Source: Candidatus Eiseniibacteriota bacterium (lineage in GTDB: Bacteria > Eisenbacteria > RBG-16-71-46). Taken from it: DNA of 64,000 nt. Below the pieces are notes generated by a model. It worked only from the letters and a program-made list of their open reading frames with translations, was not told the DNA's origin and made no database searches. Positions 840-49,421 of the stretch are shown here, in pieces (positions within the stretch are counted from its first letter, which is position 1; each line of letters opens with the position of its first letter). Both the position numbers and the translations under genes were made by a program. Location: contig CAVUWA010000002.1 in NCBI GenBank assembly GCA_963744995.1, positions 763,302-827,301 on the forward strand, read 5' to 3'.

Positions 840-2306
840 GTGCGCGCGGGTCTCGGCCGCGAGTATCCGCTGGTGATCGGCGGCGAGCGCCTGAAGGGCG
901 AGAAGCTGTTCGACTCGATCAATCCCGCGAAGCCGTCCGAGGTGCTGGGCCGCTTCAACGCGGCCTCGAAGGCACAGGCCGCGCAGGCGGTCGAGACCGC
1001 CCACCGCACCTTCGCCACCTGGAGCCGCGTGCCGGCGGCCGAGCGCGCCGCGTATCTGATCGAGGCGGCGAAGAAGATGCGCGAGCGGCGCCACACCTTC
1101 TCGGCGTGGATGGTGCTCGAGGTCGGCAAGAGCTGGATCGAAGCCGACGCCGATACCGCCGAGGCGATCGATTTCATGGAGTACTACGCGCGCGAGATGC
1201 TGCGCTACGACGGCCCGCAACCCGTCGTGCAGGTGAAGGGCGAGATGAACCAGCTCGTCTACCTGCCGCTCGGCGTGGGCGCGGTCATTCCGCCGTGGAA
1301 CTTCCCGCTCGCGATCCTCGTCGGCATGAGCACCGCGGCGATCGTCACCGGCAACACCGTATGCCTGAAGCCCTCCAGCGATTCGCCCGGGATCGCCTGG
1401 CAGTTCTACGCGCTCATGGAAGAGATCGGACTGCCGGCCGGCGTCCTCAACTTCGTCACCGGTGGCGGCGGCACGGTCGGCGACACCCTGGTGCGGCACC
1501 CGCGCACCCGCTTCGTGTCGTTCACCGGGTCGCGCGAAGTCGGCGTGGGGATCAACAGGCTCGCCGCGGAAGTCCAGCCCGGACAGATCTGGCTCAAGCG
1601 CGTGGTCGCCGAGATGGGCGGCAAGGACGCCATCATCGTGGACGAGGAGGCCGATCTCGACGCCGCGGTGCAGGGCGTGACCGCCGCCGCGTTCGGCTTC
1701 CAGGGACAGAAGTGCTCGGCATGCTCGCGCGCGATCGTGAGCGAGAAGGTCTATGCGCCGTTCCTCGAGAAGCTCAAGGCCTCGGTCGAGAAGCTCACCG
1801 TGGGCGACACGGAGACCTACGGCACGTTCATGGGCCCGGTCGTCAACCAGGCGGCGCGCGACAAGATTCTCGAGTACATCGAGCACGGGAAGAAGGAGGG
1901 ACGCCTGATCACCGGCGGCGCTCCGGTCGAGGGCCGCGACGGCTGGTTCATCCAGCCGACGGTGATCGCCGACATCCGGCCCGGCGCAAAGATCGCGCAG
2001 GAAGAGATCTTCGGTCCGGTGCTCGCGGTGATCCCGGTCAAGAGCTACGACGAGGCGCTCGAAGTCGCCAACGGCACCGACTACGGGCTCACCGGTGCGA
2101 TCTACTCGAAGAATTCCGAGAAGCTCGAGCGCGCGCGCCGCGAGTTCTTCGTCGGCAACCTGTACCTGAACCGCAAGTGCACCGGCGCGCTGGTCGGCGT
2201 GCAGCCATTCGGCGGCTTCAACATGAGCGGCACCGACTCCAAGGCCGGCGGCCGCGACTACCTGCTGCTGTTCCTGCAGTCGAAGAGCATCGCCGAGAGG
2301 ATCTGA
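840..2306 (+). CDS. pruA: L-glutamate gamma-semialdehyde (1-pyrroline-5-carboxylate) dehydrogenase, aldehyde dehydrogenase family. The authentic N-terminus appears to start at ATG 710 in another frame, which implies a frameshift near 828-831
   Basis: EYPLVIGGERL...SINPAKPSEVLG, ...VVAEMGGKDAII, EEIFGPVLAV are ALDH/P5CDH hallmarks. ATG 710 with a GGAGG RBS encodes MNPTT...YTDFSVAENRKAFEAA in frame +2 and then runs out of frame. Confidence 0.8.
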   Translation: MRAGLGREYPLVIGGERLKGEKLFDSINPAKPSEVLGRFNAASKAQAAQAVETAHRTFATWSRVPAAERAAYLIEAAKKMRERRHTFSAWMVLEVGKSWIEADADTAEAIDFMEYYAREMLRYDGPQPVVQVKGEMNQLVYLPLGVGAVIPPWNFPLAILVGMSTAAIVTGNTVCLKPSSDSPGIAWQFYALMEEIGLPAGVLNFVTGGGGTVGDTLVRHPRTRFVSFTGSREVGVGINRLAAEVQPGQIWLKRVVAEMGGKDAIIVDEEADLDAAVQGVTAAAFGFQGQKCSACSRAIVSEKVYAPFLEKLKASVEKLTVGDTETYGTFMGPVVNQAARDKILEYIEHGKKEGRLITGGAPVEGRDGWFIQPTVIADIRPGAKIAQEEIFGPVLAVIPVKSYDEALEVANGTDYGLTGAIYSKNSEKLERARREFFVGNLYLNRKCTGALVGVQPFGGFNMSGTDSKAGGRDYLLLFLQSKSIAERI

Positions 2307-2333
2307 TCCGGCCTGCGAGCCGGGCAGTGAACC

Positions 2334-2359
2334 GGGCCGGTCCCGCCGGGACCGGCCCG
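2334..2359. terminator. GC-rich perfect hairpin (11-bp stem gggccggtccc/gggaccggccc, 3-nt loop) between the convergent pruA and polX genes; possible bidirectional terminator
   Basis: Inverted repeat read directly from the sequence. There is no U-tract, which is common in high-GC genomes. Confidence 0.35.
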
Positions 2360-2410
2360 TCGTGCATCCGGAACCGCGCGTGCGGCGGCCCGCGGCAGGG
2401 GGCCGCGGTG

Positions 2411-4312
2411 CTACTTGCCGCGCTTCGGCTTCGAGACCGGGCGCTTCTGTGTCTTCTTCGCAGCGGCGCCGCGTGAGGCCGTGGCGGCCTTCTTCTTCGC
2501 AGCGGCGCCGCGCGAGGCCGCGGGGGCCTTCTTCTTCGCAGCGGGGCTGCGTGCCCCGGCGTCGGCTGCGGAAGCGGGCGCATCCGCCTCGGCGGATGGT
2601 CCGCGCGGGCGCAGCGCCTTTCGAAACACGGCCAGCGACTTCGTGTTCAGCACGTCGTCCTTCTCGAGCCCGGCGCGCCGCGCCACGAACACGCCGTAGC
2701 GCATGTGATCGAGCTGCCGCACGCTGTGGGCGTCGGTGCTGATGACGACCTTCACGCCCTTTTCCTTCGCGGCGCGCGCGTGCACGTCGGAGAGGTCCAT
2801 GCGGTTGGGCTGGGCGTTGATCTCCATCGCCACGCCCTCGCGTGCGGCGCTATCCAGCACCCGGTCCATGTCGAACGCCGCCGGCTGCCGCGAACCGATC
2901 TGCCGCGCGGTGGGATGCCCCATGACGTGCACGGCCGGGTGGGCGAGGGCTTTCAACACGCGGTTCGTCATCCCGGGCCCGGGCATGTCCACCTTCGAGT
3001 GCAGCGAGACGATCACCCAGTCGAGCAGCTCGAGCGCATCGTCATCGAGGTCGAGTGCGCCGTCGGCGAGAATGTCCACTTCGAGGCCGTGCAGCACCTC
3101 GATGTCGGGGACCTTGCGACGCACGGCTTCGATCTCCTTCACCGACTGCCGCACGCGCGCGCCGTCGAAGCCGCCGATCATCGCCAGCGCGGCGGAGTGG
3201 TCGGTGATGGCGCAGTAGGCGTAGCCGCGATCGCGGCAGGCCCGAACCATGGTCTCGAGCGTGTCGCGGCCGTCGGTGCGGTCGGTGTGCATGTGCAGAT
3301 CGGCCACGATGTCGCTCTCTTCGATGAGCTGCGGCAGGCGGCCCTCGCGGGCGAGCGCGATTTCACCGCGTGCCTCGCGCAGCTCGGGCGGAATCCACTC
3401 GAGATCGAGCGCGCGGTAGACGTCTTCTTCGGTGCGCCCGGCGACGATGCGCCCGCCTTCGGTGAGTCCGTACTCGTTGAGCGACCAACCCTTGTCGATG
3501 GCGATGCGGCGCAGCTCGATGTTGTGCTCCTTGCTGCCGGTGAAGTAGAGCAGCGCGGCGCCGAACGACTCGGCCGGAACGTGGCGCAGGTCGACCTGCA
3601 GATCGTTGCGCAGCCGCACGGAGGACTTGGTCGGCCCCTCGCCGAGCGTGTCCGCGACCTCCTGATGACCGAGGAAGGCCTTCATCACGGCTCCGGGATC
3701 GCCGCCGGTGACCAGCAGATCCAGGTCGCCGATGGTCTCCTTGCGGCGCCGGAACGAGCCGGCGATTTCCACGGTCGTGCCGCGCACCCGGCGCACGTGG
3801 GCGGCGAGGGCATGAGCGACGTCCCAGGCGCCCGCCAGCAGCGTACGGCCGCGGTCGCGCGACGCGACCTCGAGCGCCTTGAGCACGTTCTGCTCGACGG
3901 TCCTGCCGAAGCCGGGCAGTTCGCGCAGCTTCTCCTCGCGCGCGGCGCGGGCGAGGTCGTCGCGGGTGCGCACCCCGAGCACCTCGAACAGGGTCTTCAC
4001 GCGCTTGGGCCCGAGACCCTGCAGCTCGGTGAGCTCGACGACGCTCACCGGGATCTTCGCCTTCATGTCCTCGTACAGCGGAGTGGTCCCGGTCTGCACG
4101 ATCTCGCGGATCTTCTGCGCGAGGTCCTTGCCGATCCCGGGCAGGTCCTCGAGCCGGCCCTCTTCCGAGGCGAGCGAGACGACGGATTCCGACTGCTCCT
4201 CGACGATCCGGGCGCCCTCGCGATAGGCACGGATCCGGAACGGGTTCGCGCCCGAGATCTCGAGCATCGTCGCGAGGCGCGAGAACACACGGGCGACGTC
4301 GGTGTTGTTCAT
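2411..4312 (-). CDS. polX: Family X DNA polymerase (PolX) with a C-terminal PHP phosphoesterase domain and a Lys/Ala-rich histone-H1-like C-terminal tail
   Basis: MNNTDVARVF...GIGKDLAQKI (HhH), ...DLDLLV (pol-beta palm), ...HMHTDRTDG...ISTDAHS (PHP). The start ATG at 4310-4312 overlaps the ligA stop (ATGA). The ORF-track extension to 5092 is a shadow of ligA. Confidence 0.9.
   Translation of the reverse strand: MNNTDVARVFSRLATMLEISGANPFRIRAYREGARIVEEQSESVVSLASEEGRLEDLPGIGKDLAQKIREIVQTGTTPLYEDMKAKIPVSVVELTELQGLGPKRVKTLFEVLGVRTRDDLARAAREEKLRELPGFGRTVEQNVLKALEVASRDRGRTLLAGAWDVAHALAAHVRRVRGTTVEIAGSFRRRKETIGDLDLLVTGGDPGAVMKAFLGHQEVADTLGEGPTKSSVRLRNDLQVDLRHVPAESFGAALLYFTGSKEHNIELRRIAIDKGWSLNEYGLTEGGRIVAGRTEEDVYRALDLEWIPPELREARGEIALAREGRLPQLIEESDIVADLHMHTDRTDGRDTLETMVRACRDRGYAYCAITDHSAALAMIGGFDGARVRQSVKEIEAVRRKVPDIEVLHGLEVDILADGALDLDDDALELLDWVIVSLHSKVDMPGPGMTNRVLKALAHPAVHVMGHPTARQIGSRQPAAFDMDRVLDSAAREGVAMEINAQPNRMDLSDVHARAAKEKGVKVVISTDAHSVRQLDHMRYGVFVARRAGLEKDDVLNTKSLAVFRKALRPRGPSAEADAPASAADAGARSPAAKKKAPAASRGAAAKKKAATASRGAAAKKTQKRPVSKPKRGK
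2451..2552. repeat. ~39-bp tandem repeat (about 2.6 copies) inside the 3' end of polX, encoding reiterated AAKKKAxxASRGAA units
   Basis: cttcttcgcagcggcgccgcg(t/c)gaggccg(t/c)gg(c/g)ggc is repeated head-to-tail on the + strand. Confidence 0.6.
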
Positions 4313-6342
4313 GCGCCCTCCAGCCTGGCGAGGAAGGTGGGTTCGTCGATCACCGCGAGGCCGAGCTTCTTCGCCTGATCGAGCTTGGACCCGGCACCCG
4401 GACCGGCGACCACCAGCGTCACCTTGCGGGTGATGCCGCTGGCGATGCGTGCACCGGCGTCCTCGGCCTTGCGCTGCGCCTCGGGGCGCGACATCGCCTC
4501 GAGCGAGCCGGTAAAGACCATCACCTCGCCCGCGAACGGGCGCTGGCCCTGCGGATGCGTCTCGACGAACGGCCTGACGCCGGCCTTCTTCAGGCGCTCG
4601 AGCACCCGGCGGTTCCTCGCGCTGCCGAAGAACGCACTGACCGCGGCCGCGACCTCGGCGCCGATGCCGTGAATGCCGAGCAGGGTCTCTTCGTCGGCGG
4701 ACGTGAGTTTCTCGAGGCCGCCGAAGTGGTCGGCGAGCAGCTTCGCCAGCGTGCTGCCGACGTGCGGAATACCGAGTGCGTACACGAAGCGGTCGAGCCG
4801 CGGCTTCTTGCTCGCTTCGATCGCCTGCATGAGATTCTCGATCGACTTCTCGGCGAAGCCCTCGAGTCCGGCAAGATCGATCGGCGTGAGCTGGTAGATG
4901 TCGGCGAGGTTCTTCACCAGGCTCTTTTCGATCAGCTGCGCCACGGTCTTGCCGCCGAGTCCGACGATGTCCATCGCGCCGCGTGAGACGAAGTGCTCGA
5001 TGTGACCCTGCAGCTGCGCCGGGCAGGCGAGCCCGTTGGTGCACACGTGCGCCGCGCCGTCGCGCACGACCTCGCCGCCGCACACCGGGCATTTGGCCGG
5101 CAGCTCGAAGCGCTTCGCACTCTTCGGGCGCTTCTCCACGATCACCTCGACGACTTCCGGGATCACGTCGCCGGCGCGGCGCACGCGCACGGTGTCCCCG
5201 ATTCGCACGTCCTTGCGGTCGAGCTCGTCCTGGTTGTGCAGCGTCGCGCGGCTCACGGTGACGCCGGACACGTCCACGGGCCGGAGCGCCGCGACCGGCG
5301 TGAGCTTTCCGGTGCGACCGACCTGCACGACGATGTCCTCGATGACCGTGATCTCCTCGCGCGGCGGGAACTTGAACGCGACCGCCCAGCGCGGGCTGCG
5401 CGAGCGTACGCCCAGCACGTCCTGCCAGTCGCGGCGGTCCACCTTGATCACCACGCCGTCGATCTCGTACGGCAGTCCGTCGCGCTTCTCGAGCAGCTCA
5501 TCACGATAGGCGAGCGCCTCGTCGATGCCCTTGCAGTGCCGCACGCCGCGCTCGACGTGGAAGCCCCACCCGCGCATGTCGTCCTGCACGGCCGACAGCG
5601 TCGGCGGCAGCTTCTGCCCGGCGGCGAGGATCTCGTACGCGAAGAAGTCGAGCCTGCGCGACGCGGTGATGGAGGGGTCCAGCTGTCGCACGGTGCCGGC
5701 CGCTGCGTTGCGCGCGTTGGCGAACGGTTCCTCGTCGGCCGCGATCAGGCGCGCATTCATGGCCTGGAACTCCTCGACCGGCATGAGCGCTTCGCCACGC
5801 ACCGCAAGGCGTCCGCCGGGCGGCCGCTTTCCTTCCGGCGCGCGCAACCGGAGCGGGATCGCGCGGATCGTGCGCAGGTTCTCGGTGACGTCCTCGCCGA
5901 CCTCGCCGTCGCCGCGCGTCGAGCCGCGCACGAGCACGCCGTCCTCGTAGACGAGCTCGATCGACAGGCCGTCGAACTTGGGCTCGGCGAGGTAGTCGAC
6001 CGGCTCCTGGAACAGGCCGGCGTCGAGGCCCAGGCCCTTCCTGACCCGCGTGTCGAACTCGCGCACCGCGTCGGCGTCCATGAGCGAATCCAGCGACAGC
6101 ATCGAGCGCAGGTGCTCGACCTTCCTGAACGCGGTGCGCATCGCGCCGCCGACGCGCAGCGTGGGGGAGTCCGCGGGCCGCAGATCGGGGTGGGCCGCCT
6201 CGAGCTCGGTCAGCTCCTTGAACAGGCGGTCGTATTGCGCGTCCGAGATCGTCGGCCGGTCGAGCGCGTAATAGCGGTAGTCGTGCTCGCGGATCTCCTG
6301 CGCGAGCGCCTCGATCCGCTGCTTCGCCTCGGTGCGGTTCAC
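4309..6342 (-). CDS. ligA: NAD+-dependent DNA ligase
   Basis: ...KxDG adenylation motif region (EPKFDGLSIEL), Zn-finger CPVCGGEVVRDGAAHVCTNGLACPAQ, HhH and a C-terminal BRCT. GTG start at 6340-6342. Confidence 0.95.
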   Translation of the reverse strand: MNRTEAKQRIEALAQEIREHDYRYYALDRPTISDAQYDRLFKELTELEAAHPDLRPADSPTLRVGGAMRTAFRKVEHLRSMLSLDSLMDADAVREFDTRVRKGLGLDAGLFQEPVDYLAEPKFDGLSIELVYEDGVLVRGSTRGDGEVGEDVTENLRTIRAIPLRLRAPEGKRPPGGRLAVRGEALMPVEEFQAMNARLIAADEEPFANARNAAAGTVRQLDPSITASRRLDFFAYEILAAGQKLPPTLSAVQDDMRGWGFHVERGVRHCKGIDEALAYRDELLEKRDGLPYEIDGVVIKVDRRDWQDVLGVRSRSPRWAVAFKFPPREEITVIEDIVVQVGRTGKLTPVAALRPVDVSGVTVSRATLHNQDELDRKDVRIGDTVRVRRAGDVIPEVVEVIVEKRPKSAKRFELPAKCPVCGGEVVRDGAAHVCTNGLACPAQLQGHIEHFVSRGAMDIVGLGGKTVAQLIEKSLVKNLADIYQLTPIDLAGLEGFAEKSIENLMQAIEASKKPRLDRFVYALGIPHVGSTLAKLLADHFGGLEKLTSADEETLLGIHGIGAEVAAAVSAFFGSARNRRVLERLKKAGVRPFVETHPQGQRPFAGEVMVFTGSLEAMSRPEAQRKAEDAGARIASGITRKVTLVVAGPGAGSKLDQAKKLGLAVIDEPTFLARLEGA

Positions 6343-6361
6343 GCGGACCCCGGCCCCGCGC

Positions 6362-6769
6362 TCAGGCGCCGGCGAGCTTGAGGACGCGGGCGAGCTGGGC
6401 GGCGGTGAGCGGCACCACCGACAGGCGCGAGATGCGCACGAGGTCGCTCGTCTTCAGCACCGCGTCCTCGCGGAACACGGCGAGCGGCACGGGCTCGGGC
6501 AGGCGTTTCCAGGCCTGGATGTCCACCACCGCGCACTTCGGGTCGTCCGCTTGGGGATCCGCGTAGGCGGCGCCGACGGCCTTCGCCAGCCCGACCGCGC
6601 GCTTCTCCCTGCCGGTATGGTAGAGGATGAGCGTGTCGCCCTTCTTCACGCCGCGCAGGTGCTTGAGCGCCAGCGCATTGGTGATGCCGTCCCATACCGT
6701 GCGCTTGTCCCGGACGAGGTCGTCGTAGGAGTATGTGTCGGGTTCGGTCTTGAGCAGGTAGCAGGCCAT
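6362..6769 (-). CDS. EVE (PUA-like) domain protein
   Basis: MACYLLKTEPDTYSYDDLVRDKRTVWDGITNALALKHLRGVKKGDTLILYHTG is the canonical EVE/DUF55 N-terminus. It lies 20 bp upstream of ligA on the same strand. Confidence 0.8.
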   Translation of the reverse strand: MACYLLKTEPDTYSYDDLVRDKRTVWDGITNALALKHLRGVKKGDTLILYHTGREKRAVGLAKAVGAAYADPQADDPKCAVVDIQAWKRLPEPVPLAVFREDAVLKTSDLVRISRLSVVPLTAAQLARVLKLAGA

Positions 6770-6858
6770 GGCCGGAGATTAGCCGCGGCACGGAACGGCC
6801 GCAACGCAACGGGGAGCGCCCGATTCACATCCTTCAGCTCATCTGGGTCGGCCTCGTC

Positions 6859-7419
6859 ATGGTCGGCGCGGCGTTCTACGCCGACACCCCCGCGCGCACG
6901 TTCGGCGAAGCGTTCCGGCAGAACCGCTGGCAGGCGCGGCTCGCACTCGGTTCGGTCGAGATCCTCATGGTCGCGGTCTGGGCGACGGCGCACTTCGGCA
7001 CGGGCTGGGACCCGGCGCTCCTGCCGGCGGGCGCCGCCCCCGCGGGCGCCTCCGTCGGCCTGCTGCTCAGCGCCGCCGGGGTCGGTCTGGCGGTCTGGGC
7101 CAAGGTGCGGCTCGGGCGCTGGTTCTCGGCCACCTTCGCGGTCAAGGAAGGTCACGAACTCGTCACGGACGGACCGTACGCGATCACGCGGCATCCCATT
7201 TATACGGGGCTGCTGGCGGCGGTCACCGGCGGCGCACTGGTGTGGAACAGCGTGTTCACGCTCGTGCTCGCGGCGGCGCTCGCGATTCCGTTCTTCTTGC
7301 ATACGGTCTTCGAAGAGGCCATGTTCGAGAAGCATTTCGGCCAGCCGTACTTCGACTACCAGCGCCGGGTCCCCCGCCTGGTGCCTTTCACCCGGAGGAA
7401 CATCCGACGTGAATCGTGA
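6859..7419 (+). CDS. Isoprenylcysteine carboxyl methyltransferase (ICMT)/phospholipid methyltransferase family membrane protein
   Basis: ...GPYAITRHPIYTGLLAAVTG...EEAMFEKHFGQPYFDYQRRVPRLVPF matches the ICMT/PEMT C-terminal signature. Several TM segments. Confidence 0.7.
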   Translation: MVGAAFYADTPARTFGEAFRQNRWQARLALGSVEILMVAVWATAHFGTGWDPALLPAGAAPAGASVGLLLSAAGVGLAVWAKVRLGRWFSATFAVKEGHELVTDGPYAITRHPIYTGLLAAVTGGALVWNSVFTLVLAAALAIPFFLHTVFEEAMFEKHFGQPYFDYQRRVPRLVPFTRRNIRRES

Positions 7420-7855
7420 TCCCAGCACGCGATCGCCGTTCGCGCGCGTGGCGCGCGCGGCCCTCGAGCAGGGCGTGCAGGAGGCGCGCACGCAGGCGGC
7501 GGTGTGGGGGAGCAAGCCGAACTTCATCTGGGTGCGCTGGGCGCTGCCGGACGGCTGGTACGCATCGATCGGCCTGCGCCGCCACCTCGACTGGGTGACG
7601 GGCGAGCTCGGCATGAGCCGCACGACGGCGGATCTCGACACGCTGCCTCTCCTCACCCGGCCGCGCTTCGATACCGCCGAGGTGCTGGAGCAGGGCGGGC
7701 GCGTGCGGCTGGGTCTGCTGCTGCACGACGAAGACACCTGGTGGCCGGGCGGGGGCAGCGAGAGCGAGCTGGCGGAAACGCTGGGGCGGCTCGCGCTCCA
7801 GCTCCGGGTCAAGGCCGAGCGGCTGCTGCACGCCCACGTCGGACCGGGCGCTTGA
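7409..7855 (+). CDS. Hypothetical protein (GTG start; overlaps the end of the ICMT gene)
   Basis: In-frame segment of ORF 6332..7855 downstream of the ICMT stop. Codon bias is coding-like. No recognisable domain. Confidence 0.4.
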   Translation: MNRDPSTRSPFARVARAALEQGVQEARTQAAVWGSKPNFIWVRWALPDGWYASIGLRRHLDWVTGELGMSRTTADLDTLPLLTRPRFDTAEVLEQGGRVRLGLLLHDEDTWWPGGGSESELAETLGRLALQLRVKAERLLHAHVGPGA

Positions 7856-8958
7856 GGCGCGCGCTCGCGCGCGTGGCACTCGCCGTCTGCGCCGCGCTCC
7901 TGCTGGGCGCCTCCAACGCCTGCTCGGATCTGCGCATCACCCCGGTCGGCCGGTTCGACTTCGAAGGTGGTGCGAGCGCGAACCCTGCGCGCGTCGGTGA
8001 GGAGCTGAGCGGGCTGGTGCGCCTCGCCGGCGACACCTACGTCGCGGTGAGCGATGAACACGCCTGCGCGCACGTGCTGCGCATCGAGGTCGATCCCGAC
8101 TCGGGATCGATCCGCGCCGCGACCTTCCTGCGCGCGATCCCGCTCACCGACGCCGCCGGCGTGAGTCTCGAAGACGGTCACGGACCTTCGGATCGCGAAG
8201 GCGTCGCGATCGACACCACGGCGGGACTCCTGTGGATCGCGCACGAGTCGGCCGGGCCCGGCACGGCCGGTCCGGCGATCGCCGCATACGGACTGGACGA
8301 CGGGCGCCTGCGCCGCGAAATCGACCCGGCATCCGCGCCCGCTCTGGCGGTCTACGCGAACATCCGCGCCAACCGCGGTTTCGAGTCGCTCACCCGCCGC
8401 GCCGACGGCGGCGGGGCGTGGACCGCGAACGAAGAGGCGCTCACGGTCGACGGCCCGGCCCCGTCGGCGACCGCGGGCACGCTCGTGCGGCTCGAGCGCA
8501 TGGACGGCGCGTTCCGGCCGCTCGCCCAGTACGCGTATGAAGTGGATCCGCTGGACGGGCCGATCACGTTCCCGCCGCAGCTCGCCGGCCGCGAGGTCAG
8601 CGGCGTCAGCGACCTGCTCGCACTGCCCGACGGCTCGCTGCTGGTGCTCGAGCGCGAATTCGCCGCGGGCGCGAGCGGCATTCCGTCGAACCGCATCCGC
8701 ATCTATCTCGCCGACTGGAAGAACGCGACCGACGTGTCGAAGGGGAAATTCGCAGGCGGTCTCGCCGGGCGTGCGTTCAGGCCGGTGCGGAAGAAGCGCC
8801 TCGCCGAGCTGACCTTTCCGCTCAGCAACTCGAACTTCGAAGGAATCGCGCTCGGCCCGCGCCTTGCGAACGGCGACCACAGTCTGCTGCTGGTCGCCGA
8901 CAACCAGGCGGGCACCATGCAGGCGCTGTACGCACTGCGGCTCGCCGGGCTGAAGTAG
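7852..8958 (+). CDS. Secreted protein of the 'esterase-like activity of phytase' beta-propeller family
   Basis: Signal peptide LRRALARVALAVCAALLLGASNAC from a TTG start. ...SGLVRLAGDTYVAVSDE..., ...SNFEGIALGP... pattern. Start is uncertain (TTG 7852 or downstream GTG). Confidence 0.65.
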   Translation: MRRALARVALAVCAALLLGASNACSDLRITPVGRFDFEGGASANPARVGEELSGLVRLAGDTYVAVSDEHACAHVLRIEVDPDSGSIRAATFLRAIPLTDAAGVSLEDGHGPSDREGVAIDTTAGLLWIAHESAGPGTAGPAIAAYGLDDGRLRREIDPASAPALAVYANIRANRGFESLTRRADGGGAWTANEEALTVDGPAPSATAGTLVRLERMDGAFRPLAQYAYEVDPLDGPITFPPQLAGREVSGVSDLLALPDGSLLVLEREFAAGASGIPSNRIRIYLADWKNATDVSKGKFAGGLAGRAFRPVRKKRLAELTFPLSNSNFEGIALGPRLANGDHSLLLVADNQAGTMQALYALRLAGLK

Positions 8959-16303: not shown

Positions 16304-16453
16304 GGTGAAGCGTCGCGGCGCGGAGTGAAGTCCGACCCCGCGCCGCCGGCAGCGTTCTGCGGGCGAGCACGGCCGCGTTTCGGCCGGCGCCAGCGCCACC
16401 GGCGGTCTGCGGGTCGCGTTTGCGCTGACCCGCAAATCCGCTACCTTCGCGCG

Positions 16454-19168
16454 ATGCCGCTCGATCCGGGAACACGGCTGGGCCCCTACGAGATCCTCGC
16501 GCCGCTCGGGCAGGGCGGTATGGGCGAGGTCTATCGCGCCCGTGATTCGCGCCTCGGCCGCGAAGTCGCCATCAAGGTGCTGCCGCACCACCTGTCGGCG
16601 AATCCCGAGATCCGCTCGCGCTTCGAGCGCGAGGCGAAGACCATCTCGAGCCTGAATCACCCGAACATCTGCGTGCTGTTCGACGTCGGCCGCGAGGGCG
16701 AGACCGACTATCTGGTGATGGAGCTGGTCGAGGGCGAGACGCTGGCGCAGCGCCTCGCGCACGGCCCGCTGTCGAGCCAGGACGTGCTGCGCATCGGCAC
16801 GCAGATCGCCGACGCGCTCGACCGCGCGCACCGCGCGGGTGTGATCCACCGCGACTTGAAGCCCGGCAACGTGATGCTCACCAAGAGTGGCGCGAAGCTC
16901 ATGGACTTCGGCCTCGCGCGCGTGACCGGCCTCGCGCCGGGCGGCGGCTCGGGCGCGTCGGGCGCCGCGCTGTCGCAGTCGCCCACGATCGCGCAGGCGC
17001 TCACCGCCGAGGGCTCGCTGCTCGGCACGTTCCAGTACATGTCGCCCGAGCAGCTCGAGGGCCGCGAGGCCGACGCGCGCAGCGACATCTGGGCGCTGGG
17101 CTGCGTGCTGTACGAGATGGTCACCGGCCGCCGCGCATTCGAGGGCAGGAGTCAGGCGAGTCTGATCGCCGCGATCCTCGAGCGCGAGCCCGCGCCGGTG
17201 GGCGAGGCGCCGTCGGGCTCGGTGAGCACGGCCGGCGCGCCGCCGCACGGCATCGAGCGCCTGATCCGCAACTGCCTCGCCAAGGACCCCGAGGAACGCG
17301 TGCAGACCGCGCACGACGTGAAGCTGCAGCTGCAGGGGATCGCCGAGGGCGCGGGCATGGCGCCGACGAGCACGGCTTCAGTGCCGGGGCCGGGCGCCGC
17401 TGGTATGCCGATGCACCGCCGCGGCGGCTCGAAGCTCGCGTGGAGCATCGCGGCGGTGGGGCTCCTCGCAGCGGCTGGCATGTTCGCGTGGCTGTATCCG
17501 AAAACCACGGGCAGCTCGCAGTCGGTCCGTTTCCGCGTGCAACCGCCACCCGGCACGTCCGACGCCTACTGGCCGCGCATCTCCCCCGATGGGAAGTTCT
17601 TCATGGTGATCGGCGTGGACAGCGCAGGGGCTCCGCGCGCCTACGTGCGTCCGATGAACCAGCTCGATTTCCACGCGATTCCCGGCACCGAGGGCGTGCG
17701 ACGGGCCTACTGGTCGCCGGACGGGCGGGAGATCGCGTTCGTCACGGGAGACAAGATCCAGCGCGTATCGATCGCCGGCGGATCGCCCGTCGTGGTCTGC
17801 GCTGCGCCGGGCGGGGCCGATCTGAGCTGGGGATCGAAGGGGCAGATTTTGATGGACGGCCAGGTCACGGACTCGCTGCGCGTCGTTCCCGCAGGCGGCG
17901 GCGAACTGCAGCCGGCTGCGCGCATCGATCGAGCGGCGGGCGATGTGGGCAATGCCTGGCCATGTTTCCTGCCCGACGGCGAGCACTTCCTGTTCACCGG
18001 TAACCGGCAGGGCTCGCTGTCAGGGTCCATTCGCCTCGGCAAGCTGGGATCGCTCGATTCGAAGCTCCTGGGCGAATCTGACGGCCGTGTCGAATACGCG
18101 CCGGGTGGCTGGGTGTTGTTCGTGCGGGGTACGACGCTGCTGGCGCAGAAGCTGGACCTGAAGGCCGGCAGACTCACCGGGCAGCCGATCACGATCAGTG
18201 ACGAGCTGCGGGTGGGCTCGTCCCAGGGTCACTTCTCGGTTTCGCAGACGGGTGTGCTGGCGTTCTCCCCCTCGGGCACCGGGCAGAACCACTCCATCCA
18301 CGAGGCCGATCGATCCGGAACGCTCGGTCCGCCCCTGGTGTCGGGATTCGTGGTCAGCCCGCAACTCTCGCCGGACGGCCGGCGGCTGCTGTACGCGCGT
18401 GTCCCCAATTCCGGCTCGGATGGCGGCGAGATCTACGTGTTCGATCTGGAGCGACACACCGACACGCGTCTGACGTTCACGGGGGACAGTGCCGTGTCCG
18501 CGGTGTGGTCGCCCGATGGCCGGCGTTTCGCCTACATCGTTCATGGCGGGGGAGGGCAGACGGTTCGCATCGCCTCGGCGGACGGGCTGGGCGGACAGGA
18601 TTCCATTTCGATCGCCGCACAGGCAAGCGCGTACCCGGCGCAGTGGGTGAAACAAGGATCGCGGCTCGTGTTCTTCGACCTCGCCGGGCACGTCTTTGCG
18701 GTGACCACCGAGCCCGGTTCGCGTGCGCTGCAGGCCGTCGGCGATACGACGCGGCCGATGTTCCTGCCGCGGATCTCGCCCGACGGGCGCTGGCTGGCCG
18801 GCGCCATCGGACGACCCCAGACCGTGCAGATCTACGTGCAGAGCCTCGAGGGGCCGCGCGGGCAGTGGCAGATCTCGACGTCGCCCGCGTTCTGGTCGCG
18901 CTGGACGCGGGGCGGCCACGAGTTGCTGTTCGAGTCCACGGACGATCATCTGATGGCGGCGGACATCGATACACAGAACGGATTCCACGCCGGCACACCT
19001 CGCGAGCTGTTCAAGCTGCCCATGAGCACGTTCGGACCGGGTCAGTGGAGCTGGTCCTGCGACGACAGCGGCGAACGGTTCTTCCTCGTGGCACGGCCGC
19101 CCACCGAGCCCGACGCAGGTGCGATCGAAGTGGTGACCGCCTTCGAGAACCTGGTGAGCCGGAAGTAG
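16454..19168 (+). CDS. Serine/threonine protein kinase with a C-terminal TolB-like PD40 beta-propeller region
   Basis: LGQGGMGEVYRA, VAIK, HRDLKPGNVM, DFGLAR, SPEQ...DIWALG are Hanks kinase motifs. There is a TM segment, then repeated WSPDGR/SPDGR blades. Confidence 0.85.
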   Translation: MPLDPGTRLGPYEILAPLGQGGMGEVYRARDSRLGREVAIKVLPHHLSANPEIRSRFEREAKTISSLNHPNICVLFDVGREGETDYLVMELVEGETLAQRLAHGPLSSQDVLRIGTQIADALDRAHRAGVIHRDLKPGNVMLTKSGAKLMDFGLARVTGLAPGGGSGASGAALSQSPTIAQALTAEGSLLGTFQYMSPEQLEGREADARSDIWALGCVLYEMVTGRRAFEGRSQASLIAAILEREPAPVGEAPSGSVSTAGAPPHGIERLIRNCLAKDPEERVQTAHDVKLQLQGIAEGAGMAPTSTASVPGPGAAGMPMHRRGGSKLAWSIAAVGLLAAAGMFAWLYPKTTGSSQSVRFRVQPPPGTSDAYWPRISPDGKFFMVIGVDSAGAPRAYVRPMNQLDFHAIPGTEGVRRAYWSPDGREIAFVTGDKIQRVSIAGGSPVVVCAAPGGADLSWGSKGQILMDGQVTDSLRVVPAGGGELQPAARIDRAAGDVGNAWPCFLPDGEHFLFTGNRQGSLSGSIRLGKLGSLDSKLLGESDGRVEYAPGGWVLFVRGTTLLAQKLDLKAGRLTGQPITISDELRVGSSQGHFSVSQTGVLAFSPSGTGQNHSIHEADRSGTLGPPLVSGFVVSPQLSPDGRRLLYARVPNSGSDGGEIYVFDLERHTDTRLTFTGDSAVSAVWSPDGRRFAYIVHGGGGQTVRIASADGLGGQDSISIAAQASAYPAQWVKQGSRLVFFDLAGHVFAVTTEPGSRALQAVGDTTRPMFLPRISPDGRWLAGAIGRPQTVQIYVQSLEGPRGQWQISTSPAFWSRWTRGGHELLFESTDDHLMAADIDTQNGFHAGTPRELFKLPMSTFGPGQWSWSCDDSGERFFLVARPPTEPDAGAIEVVTAFENLVSRK

Positions 19169-27876: not shown

Positions 27877-29205
27877 TCAGTGCGTCGAGGGGGGCGGCGC
27901 GCCGGACGTCGCCGCGGCGCGCGTCGCGTCGTCGAGCACTGCGGGGAGGTCGATGCGCTGTGCGCCGTCGAGCCGGGCGAGGGCGTCGTCGAAGAACCCC
28001 TGCTTCATCAGATGTTCGTCTAGGAACGCCCGGATGGTGTCGCAGATGAGCCGGTGCGCATGCGCCTCCTCGGCGGACGCGCCGCCCGGATTCAGGAAGC
28101 AGGCGTCGGTGATGCTCCCGGGGCGCGTGCCGGCGAGCCGCACGATGCGCGGATCACGGAACGCGTCGAGGTGGCGGCGTGCGAACGCGGTGTGATCGCC
28201 GCGCGGGCTGCCCTCGGAGAGCAGCACGAGCAGCGGCTTGTCGCATGGCGCCGCCGGGCTGCCGACGGCAGACAGACCGGAACGCGTCCAGCCGTAACCG
28301 TCGAGCGAGATCGCGGCGCTGAAGAAACGGTAGGTGTACGCGCTGCGCACGGCGGCCATGCCGCCCATCGTGTGGCCGGCGACCGCGATGCGGGTGAGAT
28401 CCATCTCGCGGGCGAGACGCCGCACGTTGACGCGGCGGTCTCCGGCCATACGGGGCAGCATCCGCGCGACGAACGCCTGGTCGTCGGCCATCGTGGCGAT
28501 GCCCTCCTGCACGCGTTCGTCCATCCGGTCGGCGTCGAGCCCCATCATGCCCGGCATGCTCTCCGAGAAATCGACCGTGCCGCCGTCGTCGAACGCGACG
28601 CCCGGACCCCAGTGCGGGTGGTCGATCATGCCGACCACGTAGCCGTGGCTCGCCAGCTCTTCGGCGAGCGCGGTATAGAGGATGCGCGAGCTGTTCATGC
28701 CGTGCGAGAACAGCACGACCGGATGCGAGGAGTCGGCGGCCGCGGCGGCGACTTCGAGCGCCGCGTGGGTCGGCATCGTCGGGAACGGCCGCGACCAGTA
28801 GCGGTCGAGGCTCGAGCGCAACTGCGGATAACGCAGCACGTAGGGCGCCGGCACGCGCAGCGGCATCGCTTCGGCCGGGTACCAGAACTGCACGACCAGA
28901 CGGCGGCGGTCGTTCGGATCCTCCGTCCACGTTTCCTCGCGCTCGGAGTCGGTCCAGTCCATCACCAGCGTGCCGATCGTCCACGGGCCGTCGGGTGCGG
29001 GAAGGCTCGGCACCGAGGTGAGCCGGGTGGCGGCCGGAGCCGGAGTTGCATCCCGGGAAGTCGTCGCATGCGCCGGGTCCGCGGGAGCGAGGGTGGGGTG
29101 TGCACAGAGCAGCGCCAGCGCCAGCATCGCGGCCCGAAGGCACGGACACACGGCGCGCGGATCGAGGGGGCGGCCGTCCATCCGGAACTTTGGAGCGTTG
29201 CGCAT
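27877..29205 (-). CDS. Secreted alpha/beta hydrolase of the platelet-activating-factor acetylhydrolase-like family
   Basis: Signal peptide; ...HPVVLFSHGMNSS..., nucleophile-elbow variant AGHTMGG. Start is chosen among in-frame Met residues before the hydrophobic core. Confidence 0.7.
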   Translation of the reverse strand: MRNAPKFRMDGRPLDPRAVCPCLRAAMLALALLCAHPTLAPADPAHATTSRDATPAPAATRLTSVPSLPAPDGPWTIGTLVMDWTDSEREETWTEDPNDRRRLVVQFWYPAEAMPLRVPAPYVLRYPQLRSSLDRYWSRPFPTMPTHAALEVAAAAADSSHPVVLFSHGMNSSRILYTALAEELASHGYVVGMIDHPHWGPGVAFDDGGTVDFSESMPGMMGLDADRMDERVQEGIATMADDQAFVARMLPRMAGDRRVNVRRLAREMDLTRIAVAGHTMGGMAAVRSAYTYRFFSAAISLDGYGWTRSGLSAVGSPAAPCDKPLLVLLSEGSPRGDHTAFARRHLDAFRDPRIVRLAGTRPGSITDACFLNPGGASAEEAHAHRLICDTIRAFLDEHLMKQGFFDDALARLDGAQRIDLPAVLDDATRAAATSGAPPPSTH

Positions 29206-29293
29206 CGACGAAAAGGGTACCGGCAACCGGCGCGGTGGAGCAACGGCGCTCTCGTGGCGGTGGCGGTCCGGGCCCCGGACGGCGCGGCGCCGG

Positions 29294-47400: not shown

Positions 47401-49380
47401 TCAGCCGAGACCGCGCTGCTGCCAGACGCGGATGGGAAAGATGATCACCTGGATGCCGGCGAACTGGAGCCGGCGCTGGATCGAGAAGGACGTCTCGTGA
47501 TGGAGCGTGCGGGTGAACAGCGTCTCGCGCTCGAAGACCAGCTGCCCGGCGCAGACGACGCAGCGCCTGAATTCACGGGTGAGCCCCAGGCACATGTCTT
47601 CGAGCTCCTCGATCAGATCGGTGCCGACACGGTAGCGGAAGTCGGCGTAATAGCCCATCCGGTTCGCGAGGTCGACGAACCGCTCGAGATCGCCCCGCAC
47701 CTTGCCCTCGAGCGCTTCGATGTGCTCGACGCCCTTGAACTGGCCCGAATCCACGAGCCCCACGGTGGCGAACACGATGTTCCTGAAATGCCCCGGCAGC
47801 ATGCGCTGGATCGACAGCAGCGTGTGGATGCCGAGCCCGTCGTATTTCTCGACCAGCACGATCGCCGTCGGGCCGTTCGGCGCCATCACCGGCGTCGCCT
47901 TGAGCTCCGGCAGCGGCAGATCCATGACGATCTCGTCGAGCGAGCGCAGCATCCGCCGCGCGCTGCGATAGTGCGCGCGGACGCCGAAGCTCACCACGAT
48001 GAACAGCCCGGTCACCAGCAGCGACACCCACACGCCCTGGGTGAACTTGAGGATCGCGGTGAGCAGCAGGATGAAGCCGGTGACGGTGGTGCCGATCGCG
48101 GCGATGGCGAGCCGGTGCTTCCAGTTGCGCACGGTGTCGCGTACCTGGATCCAGTGCCGCACCATGCCGGCCTGGGTGAGCGTGAACGCGATGAAGACGT
48201 TGATGGAGTACATCACCACCAGGATGCTCACCGCGCCCTGCGTGTAGGTGACCAGCGCCACCGCGGCGAGGCCCATCGTGATGACGCCGTTCTGGGTGAC
48301 GAGCCGCTCGGACAGGTGTGCGAAGCGCTTCGGCACCCAGCCGTCGAGCGCCATCGCGGCGAGCGTGCTCGGGCCGGCGACGAACCCGGTCTGCGCGGCG
48401 ACGAACAGCAGCGCGCCCTCCGAGATCAGCGTGAACCAGACCACGCCTTCGCCGATGTCGATGTCGCCGAGATGCCAGCCGTGGGTGAGCAGCGAGAACA
48501 GCGACGCGTTGAGCGTGCGGCCGGCCTGCTGCTGCACGTCCCACAGCAGGTAGCACAGCAGGATGCCGCCGGCGGTGAAGGCGAGCGAGATCGCCATGTA
48601 CAGCATCGTGCGCTTGCCGGTCGCGATCTTCGGCTCGCGCAGGATGTTGGTGCTGTTGCTCACCGCCTCGATGCCGGTGTAGGTGCCGCCGCCGAGCGAG
48701 TACGCCTTGAAGAAGATCATGAACACGGCCAGTGCGCCGAGTGCGCCGACCGATTCCCGCGTCTTGTGCACGGTCTCCACCGCGATCGGGCCGAGCTGGG
48801 TGGCGTGGGTGAGAATTCCGTACGAGATCAGGACGACGTGGCTGATCATGAAGCTCAGGAAGATCGGGATCAGCACGGTGATCGACTCACGCACGCCGCG
48901 CATGTTGAGGCCGGTGAGGAACAGGATCGCGATCACGGCGGTCGGAACCTTCCACACGTCCCAATCGGTCGGCAGGAACGAGTAGATCGCGTCGCAGCCG
49001 GAGGCCACCGAAATCGAGATCGTCAGCACGTAGTCGACGACCAGCGAGCCGCCGGCGATCACGCCGGGGACCGGGCCGAGCAGCTGCGTCGCCACCAGGT
49101 AGCCGCCGCCGCCGGTCGGGAACAGCTCGACGATCTGCCGGTAGGAGGCCGAGATCAGGAACACGGTGGCCACCATCGCGCCGGCGAGATAGAGCGCGAG
49201 GTAGCGGTGGTTGCCGAGCTGCAGGAAGGTCTCTTCCGGACCATAGGCGGACGACGAGAGGCCGTCCGAACCGAGCCCCACCCAGGCGAAGAACGCGATC
49301 AGGGCCAGGCTGTGGAAGATCCTCGGATCGAACAGATTCTTCGGCCCACCGAGCAGAATGCTGCGAATGCGTTTGAACAC
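47401..49380 (-). CDS. KimA-type K+/H+ symporter (APC superfamily) with a C-terminal cytoplasmic domain
   Basis: VFKRIRSILLGGP..., ...FPTGGGGYLVATQLLGPVPGVIAGGSLVVDYVLTISISVASG... parallels B. subtilis KimA (MFHQIKRLLIGKP..., GGGAYIV...GGSLLVDYILTV). GTG 49378-49380 is preferred over the upstream ATG 49422. Confidence 0.8.
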   Translation of the reverse strand: MFKRIRSILLGGPKNLFDPRIFHSLALIAFFAWVGLGSDGLSSSAYGPEETFLQLGNHRYLALYLAGAMVATVFLISASYRQIVELFPTGGGGYLVATQLLGPVPGVIAGGSLVVDYVLTISISVASGCDAIYSFLPTDWDVWKVPTAVIAILFLTGLNMRGVRESITVLIPIFLSFMISHVVLISYGILTHATQLGPIAVETVHKTRESVGALGALAVFMIFFKAYSLGGGTYTGIEAVSNSTNILREPKIATGKRTMLYMAISLAFTAGGILLCYLLWDVQQQAGRTLNASLFSLLTHGWHLGDIDIGEGVVWFTLISEGALLFVAAQTGFVAGPSTLAAMALDGWVPKRFAHLSERLVTQNGVITMGLAAVALVTYTQGAVSILVVMYSINVFIAFTLTQAGMVRHWIQVRDTVRNWKHRLAIAAIGTTVTGFILLLTAILKFTQGVWVSLLVTGLFIVVSFGVRAHYRSARRMLRSLDEIVMDLPLPELKATPVMAPNGPTAIVLVEKYDGLGIHTLLSIQRMLPGHFRNIVFATVGLVDSGQFKGVEHIEALEGKVRGDLERFVDLANRMGYYADFRYRVGTDLIEELEDMCLGLTREFRRCVVCAGQLVFERETLFTRTLHHETSFSIQRRLQFAGIQVIIFPIRVWQQRGLG

Positions 49381-49387
49381 GCGTGGG

Positions 49388-49421
49388 AATCTAGGGGCCG
49401 GGGCAGCACATATCAAGGTCA
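49388..49421 (-). promoter_or_regulatory. sigma70-like promoter (TTGATA, 17-nt spacer, TAGATT) about 7 nt upstream of the kimA-like GTG, implying a leaderless or very short-leader mRNA
   Basis: Hexamers read on the minus strand in the one AT-rich patch of the region. Confidence 0.35.

Follow-up and report, generated by a model that had tools for sequence, protein, structure and literature searches.

A lineage-restricted EVE-ligA-polX operon of Candidatus Eisenbacteria with a constant ligA-polX core and a facultative EVE gene

Introduction

Most of the EVE proteins detected in prokaryotes are proteobacterial, and the two largest EVE sequence clusters, themselves mostly proteobacterial, lie in conserved, class-specific housekeeping operons; the EVE domains found in defense contexts are the fast-evolving ones (PMC7641849). 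In the same survey, RNA ligands were predicted for the stand-alone housekeeping EVE proteins, and THYN1 was reported as a reader of 5-methylcytosine (5mC) and its oxidized forms. The EVE domain of the restriction enzyme VcaM4I can flip and bind 5mC and 5-hydroxymethylcytosine (5hmC) in DNA (PMC7897488). The gene neighborhoods of PolX were likewise described as class specific, with no universal partner; LigD is the most common operon neighbor in the Alphaproteobacteria and an ATP-dependent ligase is found in this position in the Methanomicrobia (PMC9226535). Here, we describe a locus of Candidatus Eisenbacteria in which the genes for an EVE protein (EVE), an NAD+-dependent DNA ligase (LigA) and a PolX follow one another on the same strand. 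It was analyzed within a 64-kb stretch of contig CAVUWA010000002.1 (64,000 nucleotides [nt]; hereafter, the window) and in related loci.

The original prediction for this locus had called the arrangement nonstandard. This is in line with both surveys, as neither LigA nor PolX is mentioned among the EVE contexts (PMC7641849) and an NAD-ligase is not named among the PolX neighbors in the main text of the PolX survey (PMC9226535). The EVE-ligA-polX operon is real, previously undescribed and lineage restricted, and it is not a new three-part repair or defense system. In our preferred reading, which we hold to be probable, it is a lineage-specific housekeeping operon of the Eisenbacteria with ligA-polX as its core and EVE as a facultative leader or passenger.

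Results and Discussion

Distribution of the EVE-ligA-polX arrangement

A scan of a genome collection with the EVE orthologue alignment yielded 80 loci, in which colinearity was tested by tblastn with the proteins of the window. The nearest relatives among these loci were from Candidatus Eisenbacteria (55 to 63% identity). EVE, LigA and PolX were colinear in L002, L005, L008, L010, L011, L012, L014, L015, L016 (cut off at a contig end) and L017, and metagenome contexts added further syntenic lineages (L082/83, L084-86, L087, L088 and L090). The order thus recurs in about 16 Eisenbacteria-type lineages. No LigA-PolX pair was present beside EVE in the Eisenbacteria-type loci L003, L006, L007, L009 and L019, all of which had enough flanking sequence, or on the P0019 contig. 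As a rough frequency, LigA-PolX adjoin the Eisenbacteria-type EVE in 12 of 18 cases, and about one-third of the EVE genes sit elsewhere; part of the loci were reached by way of EVE, which makes the trio look more frequent than it is. Synteny, which the original prediction had proposed as a check, was confirmed within the Candidatus Eisenbacteria clade and ended there: the trio was missing from all of the roughly 60 EVE loci sampled in Gemmatimonadota, Acidobacteriota, Planctomycetota, Chloroflexota, Cyanobacteria, Verrucomicrobiota, Bacteroidota, Nitrososphaera and others. L003 had been considered as an independent EVE-PolX case and was rejected, as its PHP protein lacks the polymerase core and a convergent membrane-protein gene intervenes.

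In a neighbor-joining tree of EVE, all Eisenbacteria-type sequences formed one clade, within which the syntenic state was paraphyletic and two subgroups were without the trio. The EVE proteins of syntenic genomes constituted neither a distinct nor a faster-evolving subgroup.

Structure of the predicted transcription unit

The EVE stop codon (TGA, 6362-6364) and the LigA start codon (GTG at 6342) are separated in the window by 19 nt. The original prediction had placed EVE 20 bp upstream of the ligase; its position was correct and the spacing was 1 nt too long. As the spacer comprises only 19 nt, it leaves no room for a terminator followed by a promoter. The predicted ATGA coupling of the LigA stop and PolX start codons was also found (Table 1). 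Across 17 loci, the EVE-LigA junctions ranged from -4 to +20 nt and the LigA-PolX junctions from -4 to +82 nt, most of the latter being 8 nt or less. The 4-nt LigA-PolX overlap of the window recurs in L002, L005, L010, L011 and L084-86, and six lineages show a 4-nt overlap between the EVE stop codon and the LigA start. The LigA-PolX pair is predicted to be co-translated in many lineages.

When the 160 nt upstream of EVE were aligned by eye for 15 related loci, a conserved TTGnnn-N16-18-(G)CTAnnnT element was seen directly before the EVE start. The pattern TTGnnn-N16-18-TAnnnT occurred exactly once per ~4.5-kb operon region (scanned from a point 200 nt ahead of EVE through the whole of polX) in all 13 syntenic loci, and in each of them it ended 6 to 9 nt before the EVE start codon. 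In none of the 13 loci did TAnnnT occur in the 40 nt preceding ligA or polX. As the -10 box in the window ends 6 nt before the ATG, the EVE transcript would be leaderless or nearly so. In the window as a whole, the pattern was not in excess (7 matches, compared with 8.2 ± 2.7 in shuffled sequences), and four of the seven matches sit 6 to 8 nt before the starts of long open reading frames (ORFs). We read these matches as promoters of leaderless genes because their position before the starts is regular, which suggests that leaderless transcription from a TTGnnn/TAnnnT promoter type is common in this genome. A strict sigma-70 consensus scan of 2000-7500 returned no promoter, and a strict terminator scan of the same region returned one terminator-like site only, on the wrong strand. 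The relaxed promoter pattern, evaluated by where it falls in the related loci, took the place of the strict sigma-70 scan. An Rfam scan of 2000-7500 at an E value of ≤0.1 gave no match.

The GC hairpin downstream of polX has the form GGGCCGGTCCCG-GCG-GGGACCGGCCC. It is likely a terminator of the high-GC type, possibly bidirectional, that marks the end of the operon; because its U-tract is weak, it is treated here as a candidate. A second hairpin lies directly after the polX stop codon. Taken together, the motifs and their conservation point to a single, EVE-led and probably leaderless transcription unit. This agrees with the one operon of the original prediction, given the short junctions in 17 loci and a promoter-like element that, in all 13 loci compared, precedes EVE but neither ligA nor polX.

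A constant ligA-polX core and repeated loss of EVE

Six look-ups were begun from PolX homologues, and this sample is therefore unbiased as to EVE. LigA lay immediately upstream of PolX in all six loci, and EVE was present in three (L087, L088 and L090) and absent from three (L089, L091 and L092). Likewise, in no complete Eisenbacteria-type locus that has both genes are LigA and PolX separated. Where EVE is missing, the interval upstream of ligA amounts to only 154 to 232 nt, and the promoter-like element persists at a distance of 168 nt (L089), 55 nt (L091) or 89 nt (L092) from the ligA start. On L092 (3860-3960), the element is followed after 6 nt by an ATG and 28 codons (MDFFPITTGRSGYSYGDAAPDKREARRP) that run into the ligA start. 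The encoded peptide (..YSYGD..DKR..) resembles the EVE N terminus, M..LLKTEP..YSYDDL.RDKRT, with a nonsignificant BLAST match (E = 7). Based on its position after the promoter element, this short ORF is likely the remnant of a deleted EVE gene. ARAGORN detected no tRNA in the L089 leader, where a tRNA fragment had been suspected.

In a neighbor-joining tree of LigA plus PolX (no support values), L091 and L092 were placed apart from L089, which would imply at least two independent losses of EVE. The constant core is thus ligA-polX, and EVE is facultative. As relatives have deleted EVE and kept the promoter, ligA and polX, and as EVE orthologues elsewhere have unrelated neighbors, EVE is not a required component; it appears not to be needed for ligA and polX to stay paired or to be expressed. 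The obligate three-part module implied by the original prediction does not hold up against the three EVE-less loci of the PolX-centered sample, the roughly one-third of clade orthologues that lack ligA and polX or the orthologues sampled outside the clade, all of which lack them.

The EVE protein

EVE matched Pfam family PF01878 of the PUA-like superfamily (E = 1e-29; 103.9 bits; cutoff, 23), and its residues 3-131 cover profile positions 2-144 of 145, i.e., the whole domain. Sequence matches included five solved stand-alone EVE proteins (among them 2gbs and 2eve) and human THYN1. In Foldseek comparisons, the AlphaFold model (predicted local distance difference test score, 94) reached a TM-score of 0.93 to both Rpa0253 (2gbs) and 1zce, 0.91 to THYN1 with 5mC DNA (5j3e) and 0.90 to 2eve; the TM-score to the restriction enzyme VcaM4I was 0.65. 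The model has the PUA-like beta-barrel fold of the solved EVE structures. Candidate base-pocket residues were compared with W26 and Y82 of PSPTO5229 and with W82 and Y130 of VcaM4I. The pocket tryptophan W26 is kept in EVE and invariant, and the position of Y82 of PSPTO5229 is occupied by an invariant valine (V81), a residue also found in Rpa0253.

EVE orthologues are 46 to 63% identical over at least 10 phyla, archaea included. EVE belongs to the slow-evolving, stand-alone THYN1/Rpa0253-like class and not to the restriction-associated class. One homologue with 80% identity (P0016 from ENA, 165 amino acids [aa] on a 774-nt contig) has an extra match to PF01420, the type I restriction S subunit, which could be a gene-call artifact or a fusion.

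LigA and PolX

LigA scored well above the cutoffs of the NCBIfam equivalog NF005932 (828.9 bits; cutoff, 369) and of TIGR00575 (779 bits; cutoff, 444). It has the full set of Pfam domains (Ia, adenylation, OB, Zn finger, HhH and BRCT), and its translation shows the KxDG motif (EPKFDG) and a four-Cys zinc finger (CPVCGG...CTNGLAC). No second copy of EVE, LigA or PolX was found in the 64-kb window. LigA is most likely the replicative ligase of the genome. The original prediction had spoken of a dedicated ligase; a full-length LigA with all housekeeping domains, and the only one in the window, does not fit that description. In L082 (7621-9428), ligA was called as six short ORFs, and in the near-identical L083 it was called as two. 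These split calls look like assembly frameshifts, not pseudogenes.

PolX matched the NCBIfam equivalog NF006375 (495.9 bits; cutoff, 426) and contains HHH_8, thumb and PHP domains. Its residues 1-559 align end to end with PolX of Thermus thermophilus (3au2; E = 4.6e-126), whose palm motifs GDLDFLV and QVDLR correspond to GDLDLLV and QVDLR here. The metal-binding motifs of the PHP domain (HMH, TDHS, EVD, SLHS, GHPT and STDAH) are conserved. The PolX enzymes of Thermus and Bacillus fill gaps, and their PHP domain provides 3'-5' exonuclease, apurinic/apyrimidinic (AP)-endonuclease and 3'-end-cleaning activities. The catalytic Asp residues of the palm and the His/Asp/Glu motifs of the PHP domain are the features that separate canonical from "altered" PolXs (PMC9226535), and PolX is canonical in that sense because it retains both. 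All three predicted products, EVE, LigA and PolX, are intact, canonical members of their families.

At its C terminus, PolX carries a basic, low-complexity tail of ~65 aa rich in Lys, Ala and Pro (AAKKKA...SRGAAAKK repeats), which falls outside the region alignable to solved PolX structures. Part of it is encoded by a 39-nt tandem repeat (2.6 copies, 2452-2553). Basic tails of 35 to 95 aa and variable sequence were present in most relatives and absent from L010, L011 and L088. The tail may be comparable to histone-H1-like tails that certain DNA-binding proteins of bacteria carry.

TABLE 1 Positions of the operon, its putative signals and other features in the window, and of selected features in related loci
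Feature	Position	Strand	Description
EVE	6362-6769	-	135 aa, ATG start; stand-alone, THYN1/Rpa0253-like; gene 1 of the operon
Spacer, EVE stop to LigA GTG	6343-6361	-	19 nt, from sequence reading
LigA	4309-6342	-	677 aa, GTG start; NAD+-dependent DNA ligase
ATGA overlap of LigA stop and PolX start	4309-4312	-	Shine-Dalgarno-like GGAGGG 5 nt upstream
PolX	2411-4312	-	633 aa, ATG start; Pol-beta-like core plus PHP domain
Coding region of PolX C-terminal tail	2414-2605	-	~Residues 570-633; from translation
Promoter-like element TTGCGG-N17-TAATCT	6776-6804	-	-10 box ends 6 nt before EVE ATG
GC hairpin, 12 bp perfect	2332-2359	.	Between the convergent polX and P5C dehydrogenase genes; from fold of 2300-2420
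PEMT/ICMT-type methyltransferase gene	6859-7419	+	Divergent flank of the trio
L-Glutamate-gamma-semialdehyde (P5C) dehydrogenase gene	840-2306	+	Convergent flank of the trio
Promoter pattern	16420-16447	+	Ends 6-8 nt before 904-aa ORF starting at 16454 (+)
Promoter pattern	49388-49416	-	Ends 6-8 nt before 659-aa ORF starting at 49380 (-)
Promoter pattern	29214-29243	-	Ends 6-8 nt before 442-aa ORF starting at 29205 (-)
Fourth gene, membrane protein	L087:8917-9414; L088:8731-9252; L089:8887-9384; L083:11139-11609		
EVE-uvrB loci	L031, L037, L040, L044, L060, L061, L065, L066		~8400-8520 in 16-kb loci

Genes flanking the trio

The region has ~70% G+C, with a flat GC content of 0.66 to 0.74 and no compositional break. 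The wider neighbors of the trio in the window are genes for a PEMT methyltransferase, phytase-like and BNR proteins, Memo and P5C dehydrogenase. In many related loci, genes for P5C dehydrogenase, PEMT, Memo and BNR/sortilin-like proteins are also retained around the trio. As the P5C dehydrogenase gene is convergent, it cannot be co-transcribed with the trio. The gene order is thus partly block synteny, and because unrelated genes are also retained, operon membership within the clade alone is no evidence of shared function.

A fourth gene overlaps the polX stop codon in L014, L015, L082/83 and L087-L092. It encodes a hydrophobic membrane protein of 161 to 173 aa with no Pfam match, 55 to 67% identical between lineages. 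The gene is absent from the window, where polX runs straight into the hairpin.

EVE orthologues in other genomic settings

Neighbors were clustered over 81 loci, and the Pfam families of the co-directional downstream ORF were tallied for 62 nonsyntenic loci; neither approach revealed a universal partner of EVE, only lineage-specific neighbors. Downstream neighbors in other phyla included Sua5/YrdC, ScpB, aminotransferases and regulators. The largest recurrent set came from the Gemmatimonadales, where RadC, RelA/SpoT, EVE and UvrB occur in this order. The uvrB genes have a TATAnT box of their own 6 to 8 nt before the ATG. A conserved CCCGAAGAAAnCCCG-like motif ~25 to 35 nt upstream may be a regulatory site.

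The closest nonsyntenic EVE (72% identity) is encoded on the P0019 contig (JGI 3300047160), which carries neither LigA nor PolX. There, EVE is followed by a convergent MerR-TPR gene, by Ku and then by a full LigD with phosphoesterase, ligase and primase-polymerase parts; a PEMT gene lies ~1 kb upstream of EVE, with two small ORFs in between. Ku and LigD form transcription units separate from that of EVE.

Proposed function and alternative explanations

In the favored reading, transcription would start at the promoter whose -10 box lies 6 to 9 nt before the EVE start and would yield a leaderless mRNA covering EVE, ligA and polX and, in many relatives, the fourth, small membrane-protein gene. 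The transcript would end at the GC hairpin. The EVE gene would supply the promoter from which ligA-polX is expressed. LigA would act as an ordinary NAD-dependent ligase in replication and repair; PolX, like its homologues in Thermus and Bacillus, would clean ends and fill gaps, and LigA would then seal the nicks. The constant adjacency of the two genes and their frequent 4-nt overlap fit a matched production of LigA and PolX for short-patch base-excision repair or single-strand-break repair. A role of the pair in gap filling and sealing during base-excision repair is plausible. The data establish which genes these are, that their motifs are intact, how the operon is laid out, where it occurs and that EVE was lost in some relatives. 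Leaderless transcription, co-transcription, a function of LigA-PolX in base-excision repair and the lack of any direct interaction between EVE and repair are features that we infer.

Several observations weigh against EVE being merely a facultative leader or passenger. The trio is kept down to ~55 to 65% EVE identity and ~70% LigA identity, and its survival, together with the 4-nt EVE/LigA overlap in six lineages, suggests selection for co-expression, which could reflect a real functional link of EVE. In eight Gemmatimonadales loci, uvrB follows EVE after 31 to 112 nt, and on the P0019 contig Ku and LigD, the non-homologous end-joining pair, lie ~1 to 2 kb from EVE. The comparison also draws on metagenome-assembled genomes (MAGs) and metagenome contigs, with taxon labels as in the MAG records, and its trees are neighbor-joining trees without support values. 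DNA-repair neighbors of EVE in two phyla plus the Ku/LigD case are suggestive and not statistically compelling; the number of independent EVE neighborhood types, perhaps 15 to 20, is our own estimate without a formal test. EVE beside uvrB and near Ku/LigD hints at a general and hitherto unrecognized DNA-repair role of housekeeping EVE proteins, human THYN1 included. A direct EVE-repair link in any form is nevertheless improbable in our judgment, and any such role would be auxiliary, as natural deletions of EVE occur. To our knowledge, no stand-alone THYN1-like EVE protein has an established biochemical role in any organism, and for that reason a direct link would be interesting.

One form of such a link is a three-component repair module, in which EVE would flip out and recognize a modified or damaged DNA base (for example, 5mC or one of its oxidation or deamination products) and mark it for, or recruit, PolX and LigA, as a bacterial reader-coupled short-patch repair. 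EVE domains can flip and bind 5mC and 5hmC in DNA, as in VcaM4I (PMC7897488), THYN1 is reported to read 5mC and its oxidized forms (PMC7641849), and the EVE model is close to THYN1 crystallized with DNA (TM-score, 0.91). The tight, partly translationally coupled packing over ~16 lineages and the orthologues near uvrB in the Gemmatimonadales and near Ku/LigD in one relative point in the same direction. However, EVE is missing from three of six PolX-centered loci that keep the promoter, ligA and polX, and neither ligA nor polX lies close to one-third of the EVE genes of the clade or to any of those sampled from other groups. Syntenic EVE proteins are not a distinct or faster-evolving subgroup, the operon includes no glycosylase, endonuclease or DNA methyltransferase, the second pocket aromatic (Y82 of PSPTO5229) is an invariant valine in EVE, and housekeeping EVE proteins of the stand-alone kind are predicted in the EVE survey to bind RNA (PMC7641849). 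We therefore consider the module unlikely. That EVE senses a modified or damaged DNA base (5mC or products of oxidation or deamination) and passes lesions on to co-expressed PolX and LigA seems doubtful to us. If this were true, EVE as a base sensor feeding PolX and LigA would constitute a prokaryotic reader-coupled short-patch repair pathway.

RNA ligands lead to a different proposal, that EVE is an RNA-directed housekeeping factor for modified tRNA or small RNA, as has been suggested for the stand-alone EVE proteins of proteobacteria, unrelated to DNA, whose place before ligA is accidental. The Rpa0253-like alphaproteobacterial class is tied to tRNA-modification and cytochrome c operons (PMC7641849), Rpa0253 is the nearest solved structure, the neighbors elsewhere are heterogeneous and include Sua5/YrdC of the N6-threonylcarbamoyladenosine (t6A) synthesis family, and EVE is dispensable from the operon. 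Set against this are the lack of an adjacent RNA-modification gene and of an Rfam RNA in the region and the recurrence of DNA-repair neighbors in two phyla. As this proposal largely overlaps with the favored reading and differs just in naming the ligand, we give it in this specific form a low probability. A modification-dependent restriction or antiphage element, in which EVE would sense modified invader DNA and the PHP domain of PolX would serve as the nuclease, is effectively excluded. Type IV restriction enzymes and toxin-antitoxin systems do use EVE domains as sensors (PMC7641849, PMC7897488), and the PHP domain has nuclease activity, but PADLOC found no match for EVE or PolX and matched LigA to one candidate model through BRCT alone. 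No nuclease (HNH or PD-(D/E)xK), McrB-type ATPase, or GNAT or toxin partner is fused or adjacent to EVE at the locus. EVE also does not show the fast evolution and patchy distribution of defense-associated EVE domains; it evolves slowly (46 to 63% identity across phyla) and its structure is distant from that of VcaM4I (TM-score, 0.65). With its flat GC content (0.66 to 0.74), the locus is part of the conserved chromosome and not an island, and LigA is a core gene. The statement of the original prediction that EVE domains are found mostly in restriction and antiphage contexts is likewise not borne out, as the two largest EVE clusters are in housekeeping operons (PMC7641849) and the protein studied here is of the slow-evolving class.

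Our preference thus remains with the housekeeping operon. In this conservative reading, an essential ligase of an uncultured phylum would sit under the promoter of an EVE gene. The promoter consensus TTGnnn-N17-TAnnnT, 6 to 9 nt before the start codon, is usable for other Eisenbacteria-type genomes. The recurrence of EVE beside DNA-repair genes in two phyla is a testable lead on the function of THYN1-like EVE proteins.

Comparison with known systems

With VcaM4I EVE-HNH and with EVE-McrB, the protein shares the EVE fold and presumably a flipped-base pocket. Unlike these enzymes, it has no fused or adjacent nuclease or ATPase, evolves slowly, reaches a TM-score of only 0.65 and has no match to a defense model. 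The stand-alone THYN1-like EVE proteins (Bell, Wolf and Koonin 2020, PMC7641849; Rpa0253/2gbs, Atu2648/1zce and PSPTO5229/2eve) are much closer: they have the same fold (TM-score, 0.90 to 0.93), consist of a single domain of ~135 to 155 aa, evolve slowly and lie in operons that are conserved inside one lineage and differ between lineages. The partners are different. Here they are ligA and polX, whereas alphaproteobacterial EVE genes occur with TsaD-GpsA-YciI and heme/cytochrome c genes and those of the Beta- and Gammaproteobacteria with ZapA, 6S RNA and 5-FCL. In contrast to these proteobacterial cases, the host phylum of the present operon, the Eisenbacteria, is known from MAGs only.

PolX has the polymerase and PHP active-site motifs of the base-excision and gap repair enzymes of Thermus thermophilus (3au2) and Bacillus subtilis (YshC) and differs from them by its additional basic tail of ~65 aa. 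In the Bacilli, the neighbors of PolX are ZapA and MutS2 (PMC9226535) and not LigA and EVE. A further parallel is with the PolX-ligase pairs presented by Prostova et al. (2022, PMC9226535), in which, as here, PolX adjoins a co-directional DNA ligase in a class-specific manner that points to a coupling of gap filling with sealing; ligA and polX are co-directional, lie within 300 bp of each other and recur in the class, as was required for such pairs. The pairs of that account contain LigD or an ATP-dependent repair ligase, whereas the ligase of the Eisenbacteria is the NAD-dependent, presumably essential LigA. The alphaproteobacterial LigD partners are mostly noncanonical PolXs, whereas the present PolX is canonical, with intact catalytic Asp residues, and, unlike those pairs, the present operon is led by EVE. 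The coupling of an NAD-ligase with PolX would thus be a further case of the class-specific polymerase-ligase pairs already described.

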